Part shown: piece after piece, positions 25,862 to 42,600 of the stretch | How the letters are laid out: the number at the start of each line of letters is the position of its first letter | Numbering within the stretch: the stretch's first letter is position 1 | IMG/VR virus record: IMGVR_UViG_3300005512_000002 | Coordinates: 129,656-193,655 of that record | DNA length: 64,000 nt | Reading direction: 5' to 3' (one strand) | From: a virus | Lineage: Duplodnaviria; Heunggongvirae; Uroviricota; Caudoviricetes | Position numbers and translations under genes: made by a program | Notes under the pieces: model-generated | The model's database searches: none | What the model was told of the DNA's origin: nothing | Seen by the model: the letters and a program-made list of their open reading frames with translations, nothing else

Positions 25862-26680
25862 TCAGGCATTTTCGACCGCTTCCGGGTCACCGGCACAGGA
25901 GCAGTTTTCACAGTCCGAATGACCAGTCACAGCGGAATGTTCGGCACGGCGGGTGGCCCGGAGGAACTGGAGGGCCTGGTCCAGGTCGTAGACCGCTCGC
26001 AGGGGTGAAAACTGGAAACTCAGGTCGTAGTTGGCATGTGGGTGCAGGTAGATGGTGCGCGGTTCCTCGGACGGCTGCTTGAACAGGTGACCGTCGAAGC
26101 AGACCATGAATCCGGGTTCCTCGAAGTCAACACCCATGAGCGTGCCGACGTTGGTGTCAGCCGTGAAATCGGGATGCAGCTTCACAGTGACAGTGGCGTG
26201 CTGACCGGTTGGCAACGGCCACACGTGGCTGTCGTCCTGGTCCGAGACGGGTTCCGAGGTGGTGGGGGGGTCGGATTCTTCGGCCACCACGCGCGGTCGC
26301 GTACTGATCATGTGGATGTCGGCGGGGGGGCGGTATTGGGTCTGCAGCGAGGCGACGAACTCATAGCCTGCCGGCGCCGAGAGGTGACCCTCGGGTGAAC
26401 TGGCGGCGATCATGACCCTGACCAGGTGACGGACGGGCACAGTCATGGAGATCTGGTGCACGAAGGGACTGATGCGCACGGGTTGCTGAGCCACGGGCTC
26501 GGTGAAGCCCCCTGTTTCGAGCGGTGCGGCGACGGACCAGAAGGCGATATAGCCAAGCTGGTTGAAGACCGGTGCGGCCTGCTGCTGCTGGGCCTGGCTC
26601 ATGAGGATCTCGACCATGCCCTGCACGTCCGCGCTGGGCTCGAAGCGCAGCACGCTGGTCACGTGGGTGGGATCTGCCAT
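25862..26680 (-). CDS. hypothetical protein, first gene of the leftward unit
   Basis: GGAGAGGAG RBS before MADPTHV, with a promoter upstream. Confidence 0.7.
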   Translation of the reverse strand: MADPTHVTSVLRFEPSADVQGMVEILMSQAQQQQAAPVFNQLGYIAFWSVAAPLETGGFTEPVAQQPVRISPFVHQISMTVPVRHLVRVMIAASSPEGHLSAPAGYEFVASLQTQYRPPADIHMISTRPRVVAEESDPPTTSEPVSDQDDSHVWPLPTGQHATVTVKLHPDFTADTNVGTLMGVDFEEPGFMVCFDGHLFKQPSEEPRTIYLHPHANYDLSFQFSPLRAVYDLDQALQFLRATRRAEHSAVTGHSDCENCSCAGDPEAVENA

Positions 26681-26717
26681 TTCCAAATCTCCTCTCCGTG
26701 TGTGTGTGAGAGCAAGC

Positions 26718-26746
26718 ATGATACCACGCAGTTGTTTTCTCAGCAA
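26718..26746 (-). promoter_or_regulatory. sigma70-like leftward promoter
   Basis: On the minus strand: TTGCTG-17 bp-TATCAT with an extended -10 TG. Confidence 0.65.
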
Positions 26747-27084
26747 GGCAAAGTCGCAAATAGGCCCGGAAATTATTTTCAAACACGCAGTTTGCGCCAT
26801 GGGCGACAGAGGGCCCAGGAGAAACACCCCCCCCACCCCATCGAGATGGCGGCAGGGTGAACTGGTGGTAACGAGTGTGCCGGGCGGTGAACTGGGGCGG
26901 TGTAGGGGGGTTGGGTTGGCGTAGGTCTTGCGCATGGACCGGCCCATAGGAGAACGGGCGGGCGCACGCGAGCGAGCACGTCAAAGCCCCCCCGGTTCGG
27001 CGATTCACGTGAATCGGCGTGGTGGTCGTTGAGCCGGTCACGTTGGCCGGGTCACACACGAATCCCGTACACGGAGCTTCGCTC

Positions 27085-27735
27085 ATGGCCACCAAGTTGC
27101 AGAACGGTGCCCCGAAGGGGCAGGACAAGTCAGCACCGAAGCCGTCACGGCGTAGCCGTGGTAGCAAGAGCAAAGACCAGGACGCGACCCCGAAGGGGTC
27201 GGCTGGCGAGCAGGTCGAGCAGCAGTCGCCCCCGAAGGGGGCGAACGTGAAGTTCAGGGCGATTATGTCGGTCGTCAACGCCCGGATGATCCTGGTGACA
27301 CTGGGCAGGGGAAACCGCTTCGGCGGTTTCAGTCAGCGGTGTGGGATGCTCATGCGGAAGCTGATGGATATCAGCTTCGGCAACTACCGGCCCAGCGACG
27401 TGCTTTCCGCTTTGCGGAAAGAGGACTTCGCCGAGCAGTTCAAGGCCACGCTGAAAGCGTGGAAGGACGCCTGGTCACCCGGCGTCACGACGGAGACTGA
27501 AAGTCTCCGTGAGGGCCAGTATAAGGCCAGCATGGCCTTTGTGACCGAAGGTCACTACCGGCTGGTGGCCGATGCGGTCGAGTCGATGCTGGCCCATAGG
27601 GCCAGTGAGGTGGTGCTCCAGGATGGAGCAGGGAACACCCGTGTTCAGAACGTCATCGACGTTCTGGACCTCTGCTTCGGGATTAGGCTTACCTCGGCCC
27701 GGGCGGCCAACCTTAGGTTGAAGGGCACCCGGTGA
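27085..27735 (+). CDS. hypothetical basic protein with several embedded perfect hairpins
   Basis: GGAG RBS, 216 aa; the three PKG motifs are encoded by CCCCGAAGGGG hairpins. Confidence 0.6.
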   Translation: MATKLQNGAPKGQDKSAPKPSRRSRGSKSKDQDATPKGSAGEQVEQQSPPKGANVKFRAIMSVVNARMILVTLGRGNRFGGFSQRCGMLMRKLMDISFGNYRPSDVLSALRKEDFAEQFKATLKAWKDAWSPGVTTETESLREGQYKASMAFVTEGHYRLVADAVESMLAHRASEVVLQDGAGNTRVQNVIDVLDLCFGIRLTSARAANLRLKGTR

Positions 27736-28890
27736 GTCGAGCCAGCCCCTACGGGGCTGGTCAGCGGGCTCGGCAAGGGTCGAGCCTGCTGACCGAACCC
27801 GTAAGGTTCGGGTCAGCATCCGCATGTTGTGGTAAGCGGCTAGGCTGACGGGGCCACGTCCGGACGGCTTTGTCCCTGCGGGGACCGGCCTTGCCGGTAA
27901 AGTGCCTCGGCCCAGCGTACTGCGGCTGGTGATCGCCCACCGGGCTTGCTCCCTACGGGAGCCGCCTTTGTGGAATAGCGGCCAGTGTCAAGCGGCGACT
28001 GGAAAGCGCGTCTACCGACGAACGTGCTCAACGCCCCCTGTGGGAATCGTGGTCTTGGAGCAAGGTGTAGCGTGCTCGCCCAGCGAGCCGCAAGCATCGG
28101 GCCAAGGGAAGCAAGCCAGCAGGCATGGTGCCCGGTATGTACGGGGCAACCCAGCAGAGCATCACGTAGTGATGATGCCGCCGGCGGAAGCGGCTCTAGG
28201 GGCGACACCCCTGGGGTGATCCGCAGTAAGCGGTGGAATTGCGTGCTGTATGGTGCCCACGATGTACCTGGTCAAGCGTCGCCCGAACGGTGTCACCACG
28301 GTCGGTGGTCAATGGCCATGCCCGGTGTGCTTGATTCACAGAGTGTAAGAGATAGCCGGTTGCCAGACGAGCACCCGCCGTTGGGCGTAGCGTCCCCGTG
28401 GCGGGCCCGCGTAGAGTGCGTTGTGCCTGGGTGATGACGCATGGCTGGGATGCACCAGCCATGCCACTCCACTCCCTGGGATGCACGAAGCGTGAGCGTG
28501 GTGCCTGGTGTACGCTCCCTGACGGGAGCGAGCCAGGCCCGGGGGCCACGTTAGGGCAGCAGAGCGTGGCAATCGGTGAACGGTAGCACTCGCCGCCAGC
28601 CCCCACAGATCAGCCGTTTATGAGCGGTGGGGTAATGCGGTGCACAACCGATCATCCAGTCGGGGCGATGTTGCTGCGTAGCAGCATCACCAGGCCCGTA
28701 GAACAACGGGCTATGCCGATGGGCTTGAGCGTGCGGGCGATGGAACCTGCCCCACGCTGACGATGCCGAGTCGGTTGCTCGACCACTGATGCCCTGGCCC
28801 CACAGGGGGCCAGTGAGTTGCCACCGTCAGTGGTTCATGCCTCCGGTGTGCGCCGGGGGTGTGAACCCTGACGGTGATGTCAGGCAGGAG
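27736..28890 (+). ncRNA. candidate large structured non-coding RNA or structured ssDNA element (~1.15 kb; strand assumed)
   Basis: No credible ORF and more than 12 stem-loops, e.g. 27742-27760, 27761-27792, 27948-27962, 28439-28464, 28504-28537, 28672-28686, 28794-28813 and 28823/28875. Confidence 0.45.
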
Positions 28891-28897
28891 ATTCCCC

Positions 28898-29419
28898 ATG
28901 AACAGCGTGTACGATGCGAAGAACCCAGCACCTGGTGTGGTTGTGGCACCATGCCCGCATGAGCCCGCGAAGGGCCTGAGCAGCAGCCAGGCCAAGGGCC
29001 TGCGGCAGTACGAGCTTGGCGTGGTGAACCACCATGCCAAGTGCCAGCCCATGCGGCTGGATGTGTTGAGTGCAGCCCGTGAGGCCAACCGTGCAGGCCC
29101 GATTGTGGCCACGCATGGGCCCGGGGTGCGCCCTGCCAAGCGTAGGCGCAGCCCCAAGATGGGCACCACGAGCCTGTGCCATACCAGTGGCAATCGGGAT
29201 TTTGAGCTTGAGGCCAGTCGCAAGCGTAGTGCAAGCAAGCGTGCGGACAAGGCCCGCAGGCGGGGCAACCTGCTGCGCAGGGCCAAGGCAGCCATCCGGC
29301 AGGGCAATCGGGGTGCCCTGACCAGGGCCGTGCGCTGCATCATGCGGGAGTGTCCGGGCCAGGTAGGCGTGCTGCGTGGGTACGCTGCCCAGGTGAACGG
29401 CGACAAGCAGGCCCGGTAG
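28898..29419 (+). CDS. Arg/Lys-rich hypothetical protein
   Basis: AGGAG RBS; very basic C-terminal half. Confidence 0.6.
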   Translation: MNSVYDAKNPAPGVVVAPCPHEPAKGLSSSQAKGLRQYELGVVNHHAKCQPMRLDVLSAAREANRAGPIVATHGPGVRPAKRRRSPKMGTTSLCHTSGNRDFELEASRKRSASKRADKARRRGNLLRRAKAAIRQGNRGALTRAVRCIMRECPGQVGVLRGYAAQVNGDKQAR

Positions 29420-29663
29420 GGCCAATGTCTCATGAAAAACCGCCGGGGCAGCGCGATTGCGCCACACCCGACGGCTTCCGGGGGCAAGATAATCCTCCTC
29501 CTGCCTGGTGGGGCAACCTACCAGGACACCACGACCTGTGCAAGTCCGACCAGGTTTGCACGGGTTTCCCACAATCGGACCCGGGAATCCTGCACATGGC
29601 CGGCGGCCTGCCCGGCTATCGGTGCGCCCCGGAATCCCACACACGCAGGCCAGGAGACCAGCC

Positions 29664-29990
29664 ATGAAGACCATTGGACCCACGGGCGTCCTGACCACCC
29701 AGGAAGCCCGCACGGCACTGACACCAGGCGAGTGGACGCGCCTGAAGCTCCAGGGTGTGGTCGTGACCCTGGGGGTGCGGGTGACCCACCAGACCCGCAG
29801 TCGCCACGTGCACGTCTGGGGCTCGGAGCAGGACATCTACGAGTTTGTCCACAATCGGACCCCGGACTCCTGGCAGGATATCCGGGAGCGGTCCCACCTG
29901 CACTACACGCCACCGAGCCAGCAGGCCCAGGTCCAGGCCCAGGAAGAAGCCGACCAGCAGCAATTCCGGCTGCGATTCCTGGCCATGTAG
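29664..29990 (+). CDS. hypothetical protein
   Basis: AGGAG RBS before MKTIGP. Confidence 0.65.
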   Translation: MKTIGPTGVLTTQEARTALTPGEWTRLKLQGVVVTLGVRVTHQTRSRHVHVWGSEQDIYEFVHNRTPDSWQDIRERSHLHYTPPSQQAQVQAQEEADQQQFRLRFLAM

Positions 29991-30031
29991 GTTACGGGAC
30001 TGTGTGTAACCACAGGTAAATCCAGCACTTA

Positions 30032-30059
30032 CAGTCCGAGAATGACGCTTATGTAAAAC
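30032..30059 (+). other. dif-like XerCD recombination site
   Basis: CAGTCCGAGAA-TGACGC-TTATGTAAAAC has the 11-6-11 layout, and its right arm resembles the XerD arm TTATGTTAAAT; intergenic. Confidence 0.6.
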
Positions 30060-30145
30060 TGGGTTATCTCACCCAGGATTCCCACCTGCGCGGCCCGGGT
30101 TGGGAATCACACCTGTATCTCCTGGCCGCAACGGGAATCAGACCC

Positions 30146-30436
30146 ATGGCCATCACCATCGTGATCCAGCAAGCCGAGCCCACTGTGCACCTGATTGCCA
30201 CGCACACGCGACAGCGGTATCCGGACCTGCGTGTGCAGGAGCACGGGACCGGGTTCTTCGCCCGTGGTCTGGGCCACCACATCAGCCTGTACCGCCAGGA
30301 TGACACCTGGGTAGCGGCTGACAATGACAGCAAGCTGTCCTGCCCGGACCTGCGATCCGCCCATGAGGTGCTGACCGGCATGCTGGACGCCGCCGTGGCC
30401 CAGCCCGAACAGGAGACCACCGCGCAGCACCGGTAG
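30146..30436 (+). CDS. hypothetical protein
   Basis: ORF with phage-like codon bias. Confidence 0.6.
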   Translation: MAITIVIQQAEPTVHLIATHTRQRYPDLRVQEHGTGFFARGLGHHISLYRQDDTWVAADNDSKLSCPDLRSAHEVLTGMLDAAVAQPEQETTAQHR

Positions 30437-30493
30437 CCCAACCCACGCCCACCTACGCCCGTAGACCGCACCCACTCAGGAGATCCACCCGCC

Positions 30494-30733
30494 ATGCTTG
30501 TCCTCAAGATACTCGGCCTCACCATCCTGGTCCTGGGATTCGCAGCCCTGTTGCTGGCCGGCGCCCTGCACGGCACACCCGCACTCAGGCCCGGCGACCC
30601 ACACCAGACCGACCCGCACCACCAGGATTTGCTGCTGCGATTCCTGCGGCCCCGCAAGACCCGCAAAGTACCCAGGCCCTGGAGATTCACCCGCCTGCAC
30701 AAGCCCCGCAAGCAGCACAGTACAGCCAGCTAG
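30494..30733 (+). CDS. small membrane protein
   Basis: AGGAG RBS, N-terminal TM helix and basic tail. Confidence 0.6.
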   Translation: MLVLKILGLTILVLGFAALLLAGALHGTPALRPGDPHQTDPHHQDLLLRFLRPRKTRKVPRPWRFTRLHKPRKQHSTAS

Positions 30734-39600: not shown

Positions 39601-42600
39601 TCCTGGCGGTTATCGGCTGCGACAACGTCCAGCCACCCGCCCCCGGAACTTCCGGGGGCCCCGGAAGCTGACCATGCCCACCATGACCGCCCGCCAATGG
39701 CTGCAATCTGACCCTGAGATCCTGCACGTGCTGGCCAGACGGGTCGAGGAGCAATACCTGCGCCGCTTGAGTGTATCCCTGGGCGCCGAGAGTCACCCCA
39801 TGCGTGGCCTCATGCGTGGCCCTATGCGTAACGGTCGCGGCGAAGCCGCCCCGGCCCCCCGCCCCCGGACACCCCGGACACCCTGGAGAACCTACCCATG
39901 ATCTGCACCATGTGCATGCACGGTGTGACCGTCGGCTACAACGGGGCCTGGAAATGCGTGTGCGGCGAGGTGAACTGCCGGCACGCCGTGGGGATCTGCT
40001 CGCACTGCGGGCTGACCCTGCGCAAGCTCACCGAGGCCGGTATGGTGGACCGGGACGGCCACCCCCTGACCATGGCCGACATGACCGAGCCGCAGCTTGA
40101 ACTGGTCATGAAAAACCTGGCCTGCCGCACCGAAGCCGCCCTGCCACCCGGACCGAGTCCCAACGGCAAGATGCTGTTCACCCTGCTGGTGTTCGACGAG
40201 CCGCAAGGCGGCCAGTACATCGGCAACTGCGATCGAGCCAGCATCATCCAGGCCCTGCGCAACACCGCCGACCGGCTGGAAGTCAGACAGGACGTACCCC
40301 GATGACCCCCGAAAAACAGGATCGCCTCATTCAAGCCCTGACCCGGATCGCCGAGCATGAGCATCGAGCCGACCGCAGGTACCGGAACATGGTGGACGTG
40401 TCCGAATTGGACGACCTGCAGCGGATCGCCAGCAACGCCCTGGCCCAAGATACCGGCACCGAAGACGGCGACGGGCCCGTGCCCGAGACACCGCTCGAAG
40501 ACCTCCAGCGGCAACTGGCCCAGCAGAATACCAACCTCATGTGGCTGATCGACGTGATCAACGAGGCCCACGGCGCCCTGTGCCCCGAGCAGACCGGCAC
40601 CTGGCAGCAGAAGGCCATCCAGGTGCTCGAAGCCGCCCGCAGCCACGCCCAACGCCCAGCCCGTCAGGACGCACCCCTGGGTGAATGGGAAATGACCATC
40701 GACCTGGGCCCGGGCGACTTCGACCAGCAGCAGGAAAACGCCCTGTTCGAGCGGTTCAGCAGCGAGCCGGCGTGCTCCGATCCCCTGCTGTTCAGCCGTG
40801 AGGGCCGCAAGTGCATCGAGATCAGCATCCAGCACACCAACGCCGCCAGTGCCTTGACGGCGGTGCTGGCCATGCTGCACGACCTCCAGCCGGGGGTCAA
40901 CATCATGAACCTGCTGGAGATCCATGCGTTCGCCGAGCCCGAGCCGATTGCCTGGCAGGTCGGCGTCCCCCGTGAGCTTTGGGGCTTGAAGCAAGATCAG
41001 GCCCTCAAGGAGGGCTGGATGCTGTTTGGCGGCGACCTGCCCATCGACCCCATGCACATCGGGCGGGTCGAACTGCCAGCCGACAAGTCCCGCTTCCAGA
41101 CCAACGACGAAGCGTTCGGATACGTGCTGGCCCGGGCCCTGCAGGGCAGCAGACTGCACCTGCTGGCCATCTACCTGCACGGCAGAGTCACCGACCAGGA
41201 CGTGCCCGTGCCCGCATGCCTGCTGGAGAACTAATCCCATGGACGCCTACATCTACGACGCCGACCTGTACTGCGAAGACTGCATCGCCGCGATCAAAGC
41301 CAAGCTGGAAGCCGACGGTAACAAGCCCGAGAATCCCGACGACGAAATCTCTTTCGACTCGGGTGACTGGCCCAAGGGGCCCTACCCCGACGGTGGCGGT
41401 GAAGCCGACAGCTTCCAGCACTGTGCCGATTGCGGCACGTTCCTGGAGAACAGCCTGACCACCCAGGGCGTCAAGTACCATATCGCCATGCTGGGCGACT
41501 GGATACTGGACCACGACGACGGCAATGTCAAAGTCCTGGACCTGTGGTCCGAGCACCTGGGCGACTACAGCCTGGACCACGACCAGAAGGTGGTGCTCAC
41601 AGCCTTCAACCAGATCCGCAACCTGCAACTGCGACTGGCCCAGGCCAAGCCCGAGGACCAGCCGGGGCCCGTGTGGGTGATTGGCCGCAAGGACGCCAGA
41701 CACACCGGACGTGACCTGTACTGGCACACAGACGACGGCTGGGTGGACCTGAATCATGCCGAGCGGTTCACTCAGACCGAACACGACACGATGAAGATCC
41801 CCCGCCAAGGGGAGTGGTACGGCACCGACGAACTTGGCACCTGGACCGTCCCTGACTTCAAGGACTTTCTCGAAGCCCACGGCCAGCAATGGGCTGAAGT
41901 CACCGACACCGATCCTGCCCGCATAGAGCCGCCCACCGATACGGAGATCGCCCTGGTCCGACAGCGGGTGGAGCGGATGATCCGAGGCGAGCCCTATGGG
42001 TGCGAGTGCGAGGAAGGCCACAAAGAACGGGGCAACTGCTGCCGCTGGTGCTGGGACTGCCTGGCACGGATCGCCCAGGAGATCGCCGACCAGGGTCACA
42101 AGTCCTGCTATATCGCCATCCTGCCCAGCGGGCCCGAGGGCGAATACTGGCTGGAGATCGAGGTGGTGCCCCAGGACATCATCGGGGCCTGCTTCGACAC
42201 ACAGATCTACGACCTAGCCTGGGCCCGCCACTACGCCAACCTGCTGGATAAGATGCTCACCGAGGGCCACGGCATCAAGGTGTTCCAGGACCGCGAAGCA
42301 TGGGAGAACCAGCCACTGCCCGGTGACGGCTAAACCCCCACGGGTCAAACCCCGATGACCATTACCATCATGCCACCCTCCGAAACGAAAGCCCGCACGC
42401 CCCCGATGGACCTGTCCATCCGGGGTCAGGCCATGGACCTGGTGCGCGAGGCCGGCGGCGATTGGATCGCCGCCGCCGAGCAGGCCAACCACTTCCGGGG
42501 GCAGTACAAGACCTGGTGCAAGGCCAAGCACCATTGGGACGACGTGGCCAAGCTGATCCACAACTGGTGGAAGCTCAAGTACGAGGCCAGCCACCACCGC

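Follow-up and report, generated by a model that had tools for sequence, protein, structure and literature searches.

A probably selected hairpin platform over a gene and its downstream spacer at the transcription divergence point of a probable Planctomycetota phage

Why does a phage genome carry a dense run of small hairpins at the point where its genes turn away from each other, and in which nucleic acid would those hairpins act? The locus lies at 27085-28890 of a 64,000-nucleotide window, which is the whole stretch of DNA analysed here and the last 64 kb of one 193,655-bp IMG/VR virus record (IMGVR_UViG_3300005512_000002). The original prediction, made from the letters of the window, described a hairpin-dense element of about 1.8 kb with recurrent C-GNA-G triloops, and took it for either a new large non-coding RNA (ncRNA) or a folded single-stranded DNA (ssDNA) or cruciform platform at the first-entering end of the genome. 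Genes run leftward until ~26.7 kb of the window and rightward from 27085, so that the hairpin zone is the transcription divergence point, as had been predicted. We find a hairpin platform of ~2 kb that is genuine, statistically extreme, so far unique and a member of no known family; it is probably maintained by selection. Its mechanism stands between RNA and ssDNA, with action in the rightward transcript ranked only slightly above action as single-stranded or extruded DNA.

The hairpin cluster is extremely enriched, polar with respect to strand, and overlaps coding sequence. Across the whole genome of 193,655 bp there are 149 perfect hairpins with a stem of at least 6 bp and a loop of 3 nt, or 0.77 per kb. 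Two neighbouring 1-kb bins at ~26.3-28.3 kb of the window hold 17 of them (4 + 13), a density far beyond chance, and no other bin has more than 4; the eight triloop hairpins that the prediction quoted, as well as a C(TTCG)G hairpin, were all recovered at their positions. The densest part is not the gene-free stretch but the open reading frame (ORF) beside it, at 27085-27735. When loops of 3-4 nt are counted, this ORF contains 14 perfect hairpins of 6-9 bp (12 triloops and 2 tetraloops), which cover 41% of its bases; the first ten follow one another at intervals of 38-47 nt, one double gap excepted. Synonymous shuffles, in which codons are exchanged among identical residues so that protein and codon usage are held fixed, gave a mean of 0.9 hairpins and a maximum of 4 in 300 trials, and 11 control genes from the window have 0-1 each. 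No paralogous copy of the hairpin element was found elsewhere in the genome. Fourteen hairpins against 0.9 expected, in a hot spot unique in the genome and with controls at 0-1, argue for selection rather than chance.

ORF 27085-27735 (+ strand) is a true coding gene. Its product, P0001, is a basic protein of 216 aa (pI 10.1), with a Shine-Dalgarno GGAG 8 nt 5' of the ATG and a GC content of 0.8-0.87 at third codon positions vs. 0.43-0.53 at second positions. An exhaustive search returned 14 metagenomic homologues; the best are 51% and 46% identical, gap-free across 170 residues, and one comes from a Tepidisphaeraceae (Planctomycetota) metagenome-assembled genome (MAG). The third-position pattern together with the 14 homologues means that the hairpins are a second layer of information on a conserved protein. 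AlphaFold predicts a helical domain preceded by a tail at the N terminus that is basic and disordered (predicted local distance difference test, pLDDT, 80). Searches for the function of P0001 gave no match in Pfam, PDB sequences or Foldseek and no lead in the Atlas; the best VIA-align hit (Z 4.6) involved generic helices only, and the sole PHROG match (0.0037) was a chaperone aligned to the low-complexity tail.

Hairpins occupy both the tail and the domain. In the non-conserved basic tail, three paralogous CCCCGAAGGGG units (27108-27122, 27185-27201 and 27226-27244, + strand; repeat families D3 and D5 and the hairpin list) each translate to Pro-Lys-Gly, and a CACGGC-GTA-GCCGTG hairpin stands at 27146-27160 on the same strand. 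Only 4 occurrences of CCCCGAAGGGG are present in the whole genome, 3 of them at 27108-27244. The outer stem pairs of the three units vary yet are complementary (TG/CA, CGA/TCG, TCGC/GCGA), which we count as putative internal covariation in favour of selection. Perfect hairpins on the + strand within the conserved domain (27311-27720) lie at 27311, 27357, 27403, 27446, 27490, 27523, 27541, 27589, 27614, 27646 and 27708. At 27646, for example, QNV-I-DVL is encoded by CAGAACGTC-ATC-GACGTTCTG; the homologue reads QRL-I-DVL and has no stem.

The loops show the same polarity. Of the 20 triloop hairpins in the region, 11 have a GNA loop on the + strand, vs. 29 of 391 elsewhere (Fisher p 1.7e-7). Within the region such loops number 11 on the + strand and 2 on the - strand, and within ORF 27085-27735 the counts are 9 on the + (sense) strand and 0 on the -, in a genome whose GNA loops otherwise have no sense-strand bias. 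C-G, the closing pair of the predicted C-GNA-G triloops, is found in only 7 of the 11 + strand loops. CCGAAGG occurs four times on the + strand (27112, 27190, 27232, 27545) and GCGTAGC twice. The ORF hairpin stems consist of Watson-Crick pairs throughout, their loops contain 6% C, and the spacers between hairpins have a GC skew of +0.17. Composition sets the locus apart as well: the sense-strand skew at third positions is +0.12 in ORF 27085 and +0.07 in the next gene, ORF 28898 (G>C), in contrast to -0.09 to -0.27 (C>G) in the other phage genes tested. Together the two ORFs (27085-29419) form a 2.4-kb compositional island; the local GC of the hairpin zone stays at 0.64. Elsewhere in the window, six co-oriented elements composed of CGTAACGG and GCGGC-GNA-GCCGC (C-GNA-G) were found at 39827, 43335, 48841, 54003, 55120 and 60104, on the sense strand of the rightward gene array; two begin at an ATG and would read MRNGRG... 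The loop type of the hot spot is therefore also used elsewhere in this phage.

The stretch that follows the gene, 27736-28897, is non-coding. GC is flat across its codon phases, its six ORFs have no Pfam match, and the longest of them (149 aa) has no database homologue, which bears out the prediction that 27736-28890 holds no credible ORF. Folding, another of the proposed checks, goes beyond dinucleotide shuffles: with RNA parameters z is -5.1 for ORF 27085-27735, -3.4 for 27736-28320 and -6.4 for 28321-28897, and with DNA parameters it is -6.2 (+ strand) and -9.5 (- strand) for the ORF and -5.4 (+ strand) and -4.3 (- strand) for the 3' block. A 200-nt scan placed structured blocks at 27100-27900 and 28400-29100, with z near zero at 27800-28400. 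The predicted extent is accordingly right about a dense zone and wrong about its shape, as the hot spot lies mainly in the ORF, 27800-28400 has no local excess, and the structured zone extends to ~29050, into ORF 28898.

Three parts of the spacer can be told apart, all read on the + strand. Beginning 6 nt past the stop codon of P0001, four abutting hairpins (9 bp with a TAC loop; 13 bp; 7 bp with a CGUAA loop; 6 bp) occupy 27741-27829. An intrinsic terminator was considered for them and rejected, the hairpins having no T run and no U-tract following in the RNA. The cluster may be a terminator not of the E. coli type or a 3'-end stabiliser, because an equivalent strong post-stop hairpin is present in other members of the P0001 family, namely at L006 619-642, L007 1969-1990, L012 1161-1231 and L014 892-912, to be compared with 27741-27761 of the window. 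In the family this is a perfect GC-rich hairpin 5-35 nt past the stop, of up to 16 bp and with a GAAA loop (L012), and the gene is usually the first one next to a divergent junction or gene-free stretch. The second part, 27830-28400, has little local excess structure, and only long-range helices are predicted there (a domain at 28112-28333). The third, 28400-28897, is strongly structured (RNA z -6.4 and the helix list), with a 10-bp hairpin at 28439-28464, a nested one at 28503-28538, others at 28667-28688, 28693-28712 and 28792-28815, and a 25-bp helix at 28822-28876 whose four non-Watson-Crick positions are all G·U. This last helix ends 10 nt 5' of the Shine-Dalgarno AGGAG (28886-28890) of ORF 28898. 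Spacer helices have varied loop sizes and ~11% G·U pairs, and in windows at 28600-29000 folding z is stronger on the + strand than on the -.

ORF 28898-29419 (+ strand), recognised by its codon-phase GC pattern, encodes P0003, an arginine-rich orphan of 173 aa and pI 11.4 for which a homologue search found none; the proteins on both sides of the spacer are thus basic, as predicted (pI 10.1 and 11.4). Its first 150 nt contain hairpins at 28988-29002 and 29015-29041 (11 Watson-Crick pairs and one G·T). A scan for sigma-70 promoters and terminators was uninformative for the zone; an E. coli-type scan for GC-rich hairpins followed by a U-tract found no such site on the + strand at 26000-30500. Upstream of P0001, a divergent non-coding control region fills 26690-27084, between the last leftward gene and ORF 27085 (delimited by sequence, flat GC by codon phase at 26720-27080 and the hairpin list). 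It contains long C/G homopolymer runs, two GGTGAACTGG direct repeats 30 bp apart (26856 and 26886), and a CACGTG-centred palindrome, CGATTCACGTGAATCG, at 27001-27016.

Relatives of the gene share the hairpins sparingly. Five homologous genes were tested: L005, the nearest (51% identity), has a modest excess (6 hairpins vs. 2.4 expected), as does L007, and L002, L006 and L008 have none. No excess was seen in the homologous gene from the Tepidisphaeraceae MAG. Only two hairpins, 27446 and 27523, are kept at the same alignment columns in L005. AAGGCCA-GCA-TGGCCTT corresponds there to AAGGCCT-GCA-AGGCCTT, a compensatory A:T to T:A swap of the closing pair with the GCA loop unchanged, and CCACGCT-GAA-AGCGTGG corresponds to CCGCGCT-GGA-AGCGTGG, in which an A-U pair has become G·U and the GNA loop is kept (GAA to GGA). 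As a sign of conservation this sharing is suggestive only, because both hairpins sit in conserved residues (LxAW, KAxxAF) and two sequences are compared.

What would such a platform do? We tentatively favour, at rather less than even confidence, a selected, plus-strand-polar device acting in the rightward early transcript, and we infer both the RNA form and its role. The platform would stand at the head of the rightward transcription unit, with its hairpins read from the + strand, the sense strand of the genes here. Over its first ~2 kb, the rightward RNA would begin with the message for a small basic protein, bearing ~14 uniform hairpin modules on its codons (6-9 bp, GNA triloop, one per ~40 nt), and continue with the hairpin cluster directly past the stop codon and then a ~1-kb untranslated, G-rich, C-poor folded spacer. 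This spacer would end in a long G·U-containing helix just 5' of the ribosome-binding site of the next gene, which encodes the arginine-rich protein. With single-stranded gaps of only ~20 nt, the RNA would give Rho and single-strand-specific RNases little to act on, and it would present a hairpin-binding factor with the same type of loop many times over.

Several observations point to RNA. The GNA loops favour the sense strand 11:2 overall and 9:0 in the ORF, the spacer has an irregular architecture with G·U pairs and a terminal helix at the ribosome-binding site, and at 28321-28897 the RNA z of -6.4 exceeds the DNA values of -5.4 and -4.3, the + windows being the stronger. The C-poor unpaired segments would make a poor Rho or RNase substrate, and the A-U to G·U change seen in the L005 alignment may be of the kind that RNA tolerates. 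Features of an origin were not found at the locus, be it an excess of DnaA boxes, iterons or a departure from a GC of 0.64.

A number of points weigh against action in the transcript. The ORF hairpins are purely Watson-Crick, 12 of the 14 have triloops, and their C-GNA-G cap is a motif of DNA stability, where RNA-selected structure would be expected to tolerate G·U pairs and to prefer tetraloops. For the ORF, the DNA-parameter z is at least as extreme as the RNA z. The difference between minimum free energy (MFE) on the + and the - strand is no larger than composition predicts (z +1.5, +0.3 and -1.4), and folding energies therefore do not identify RNA; a higher number of G·U pairs on the + strand (74 vs. 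46) was dropped as evidence, as composition explains it. MFE against synonymous shuffles is not specific either, since control genes reach z -4.6, and the apparent excess structure of L005 and L007 is therefore weak evidence. The two L005-shared hairpins, lying as they do in LxAW and KAxxAF, are anecdotal in a comparison of two sequences. Finally, the scan did not map promoter or terminator bounds, and no homologous non-coding element was found. It may be that the two blocks differ in kind, that of the ORF being DNA-like and that of the spacer RNA-like.

Known RNA systems offer partial likenesses. In MS2-type ssRNA viruses, packaging-signal and operator hairpins are dispersed over genomes of ordered RNA structure and are bound by coat protein. 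The present hairpins resemble them in having differing stems with a common loop motif, in being set in coding sequence by way of the codons and amino acids chosen, and in their fairly regular spacing; they differ in belonging to a double-stranded DNA (dsDNA) tailed phage and in their perfect Watson-Crick stems, MS2-type hairpins being parts of RNA genomes bound by coat protein. Leaders of phage early operons, such as the lambda N leader with nut and the T7 early RNA, are structured and contain RNase III hairpins. The likeness here is that a small arginine-rich early protein of the first rightward transcription unit has a long helix with G·U pairs immediately 5' of its ribosome-binding site; the differences are that no conserved element like boxA or boxB was identified, that the leader is 1.15 kb rather than ~0.2 kb, and that the upstream gene is saturated with hairpins.

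The strongest competitor to action in the transcript, which we regard as a serious possibility although not a probable one, is action at the level of DNA. The + strand would form ultra-stable mini-hairpins whenever it is unpaired, be it displaced as the non-template strand in the wake of RNA polymerase or in an R-loop, or serving as lagging-strand template at a fork that moves rightward; alternatively, these would be extruded from supercoiled duplex. They would keep off single-stranded DNA-binding protein (SSB) or RecA and act as marks for priming or for structure-specific proteins, in a region for replication start or supercoil sensing. Stems that are all Watson-Crick and of 6-9 bp, with minimal 3-nt loops, fit this well, as do the seven C-GNA-G loops on the + strand and the four + strand copies of CCGAAGG, the core of RSF1010 ssiA. 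C-GNA-G hairpins have extraordinary stability in DNA, far above that of their RNA counterparts, and are bound poorly by SSB; such d(GCGNAGC)/C-GNA-G mini-hairpins occur in the phage G4 complementary-strand origin, RSF1010 ssiA and phage N4 early promoters (PMC13037366). The hairpins disregard the boundary between coding and non-coding sequence, the DNA-parameter z of the ORF reaches -6.2 and -9.5, and the locus lies where genes diverge in both directions. Among the genes tested, G>C on the non-template strand is seen only in this zone, and such a composition favours R-loops. On the other side, no AT-rich unwinding element, iterons or DnaA-box cluster was found, the 64 kb containing 6 DnaA boxes vs. 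4.95 expected, with the nearest at 29845, right of the 27-29 kb zone, and the hairpin zone itself yielding neither iterons nor repeat families. Known ssi and origin signals have far fewer hairpins than the ~20 over 2 kb seen here, an ssDNA stage is not obligatory for a tailed dsDNA phage, and the G·U-dependent helices of the 3' block would make poor DNA hairpins.

Comparison with the G4 origin, ssiA and N4 signals gives a similarly divided picture. Short stems of 5-9 bp, a 3-nt GNA loop that is often C-G closed, and placement on one strand are common to all, and both CCGAAGG and GCGTAGC cores occur here. The N4-type pattern of a 5-7 bp stem with a 3-nt purine-centred loop (GGA or GAA) is represented, the 11 + strand GNA triloops having stems of 6-9 bp; so is the ssi-type pattern, a stable hairpin with a CCGAAGG core on the strand to be primed, here the + strand. 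The known signals comprise one to three hairpins with conserved flanks and are tied to a primase or to the N4 virion RNA polymerase, whereas the present ~20 stems are unrelated, extend over 2 kb and lie mostly in a coding gene, on the non-template strand. N4-type promoters, the analogy drawn in the prediction, are not supported. In N4 such hairpins lie on the template strand, with conserved flanks and a fixed distance to the start site downstream; here the GNA loops are on the non-template strand, no conserved flank or repeat family was found, and the virion type is wrong, this being a long-tailed phage whose only giant ORF (5166 aa) encodes the tape measure. The T7-like RNA polymerase domain PF00940 had no match in the genome, nor in control genomes. 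A second candidate at the DNA level was the injection-stop region of T5, which is untranslated, lies in the terminal repeat and has conserved repeats and eight DnaA boxes (bioRxiv 10.1101/866236). Like it, the present locus is a large untranslated region rich in inverted repeats or palindromes beside early genes; it was set aside, as repeat families, a DnaA-box excess and signs of a genome end were not found here. Nothing marks the hairpin zone as the first-entering end, so this part of the prediction gained no ground, and no end repeats were found on the contig. At its start (genome 1-60) the contig has tandem CCCCCGGAA units.

The prediction's other proposal, a new large structured ncRNA akin to GOLLD or ROOL that would have a gene of its own at 27736-28890 and might be bound by the basic proteins on either side, now appears unlikely. 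A stretch of 1.15 kb without coding signal, z of -3.4 and -6.4 with multi-helix domains predicted, and neighbouring proteins that are basic and partly disordered are all in keeping with it. With GOLLD, ROOL, HEARO, OLE and raiA, the large ornate ncRNAs of phages and bacteria, it shares a gene-free stretch of kilobase scale that folds well beyond shuffled controls. Unlike these, the present stretch has no Rfam match or relatives, and structure is concentrated towards either end of the spacer and, still more, in the ORF; the middle 600 nt have no local excess. At gathering thresholds, cmscan against Rfam returned 0 matches anywhere in the window, with GOLLD, ROOL, HEARO, OLE, raiA and group I/II introns included, and at E<=10 the segment 26500-29500 gave only isrB (27 bits vs. 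a gathering threshold of 35), BSR0441 (18.5 vs. 291) and rsmX (16.9 vs. 56). Relatives were equally elusive: blastn of the hairpin region against 50,697 phage records had no match, the spacer has none in an index of similar DNA stretches or in this genome itself, blastn among the gene-free flanks of P0001 family members found no common element, and a search of IMG/VR for closer relatives via the large terminase (TerL), P0001 and the family alignment returned none. Promoter and terminator bounds are not recognisable, and the densest hairpins, those of the upstream ORF, would be left unexplained. A new large ncRNA is thus not demonstrable in the collections searched. A sponge RNA of the CsrB/Rsm type was rejected too, with a single GGA loop (27614) and the rsmX score quoted above, as was a retron or diversity-generating retroelement, no reverse transcriptase having been found in a search for one; a tRNA/tmRNA scan also found none.

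Least of all do we expect the hairpins to be a mutational by-product (quasi-palindrome correction by template switching in often single-stranded DNA, tolerated by the protein) or a recently acquired foreign segment of odd composition: perfect Watson-Crick stems are a signature of templated correction, the composition of the block sets it apart as an island, no hairpin excess is seen in L002, L006 and L008 out of five homologous genes tested and a modest one in L005 and L007, and stem codons are somewhat less identical to the homologue than other codons (39% vs. 53%, p 0.10), but 14 independent multi-base events would be hard to fix without selection in a conserved gene of 650 nt, the architecture is uniform and its loop motif favours one strand (p 1.7e-7), two hairpins seem to be kept between homologues of 51% identity, and nothing comparable occurs elsewhere in 194 kb.

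The phage itself is remote from those in GenBank, the best TerL match being ~25% identical. Its genome is 65% G+C and 97% complete by CheckV, and its genes include the large terminase, a portal protein and a 5166-aa ORF with a PhageMin_Tail (tape-measure) domain (E 7e-31; genome 100394-115894, locus L015, outside the window). These three identify it as a long-tailed phage, and the tape-measure ORF implies a tail of extreme length. Of the ORFs that adjoin it, those of 2717 aa and 1744 aa have no Pfam match. The host is probably a member of Planctomycetota, a group whose phages are barely known. The P0001 family was not found in 400 other genomes of the phylum of the MAG carrying P0002, and the genes neighbouring P0001 homologues have no relatives in this phage genome. 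A distant member, P0012 (L009/L010 1-20531), lies in an island with an integrase, an excisionase (HTH_17) and DUF3987, in a 45% GC genome and with DUF2958 and ThiF-like genes as neighbours; the family is therefore borne by different mobile elements. Downstream of the operon of another family member, L008 3545-3826 contains seven or eight TGGTTGCA-N4-6-TGCAACCA palindromes in 280 nt.

Dense, uniform structure over conserved coding sequence is well known in RNA viruses and essentially undescribed in tailed dsDNA phages. That both amino-acid and codon choices are bent to build 14 perfect hairpins implies strong selection beyond the protein. A bolder proposal, which we consider doubtful, is that the array of ~20 uniform GNA-capped hairpins over gene and spacer is a new phage device read by a structure-specific factor. 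In one version it would be a multivalent RNA scaffold which, with the adjacent arginine-rich proteins, forms an antitermination or protection particle; in the other it would be the displaced + strand of a transcription-primed (R-loop) replication start, with the hairpins holding the loop open and excluding SSB. Either version, if true, would mean that a gene of a dsDNA phage carries a second, overlapping code, for which no counterpart has been described. If the hairpins act in RNA, the locus would be a natural example of an mRNA hardened or made multivalent, of interest for how RNases, Rho and RNA-targeting defences are evaded. Action in DNA would extend what is known of GNA mini-hairpins from N4 promoters and ssi signals to a large array in a probable Planctomycetota phage.

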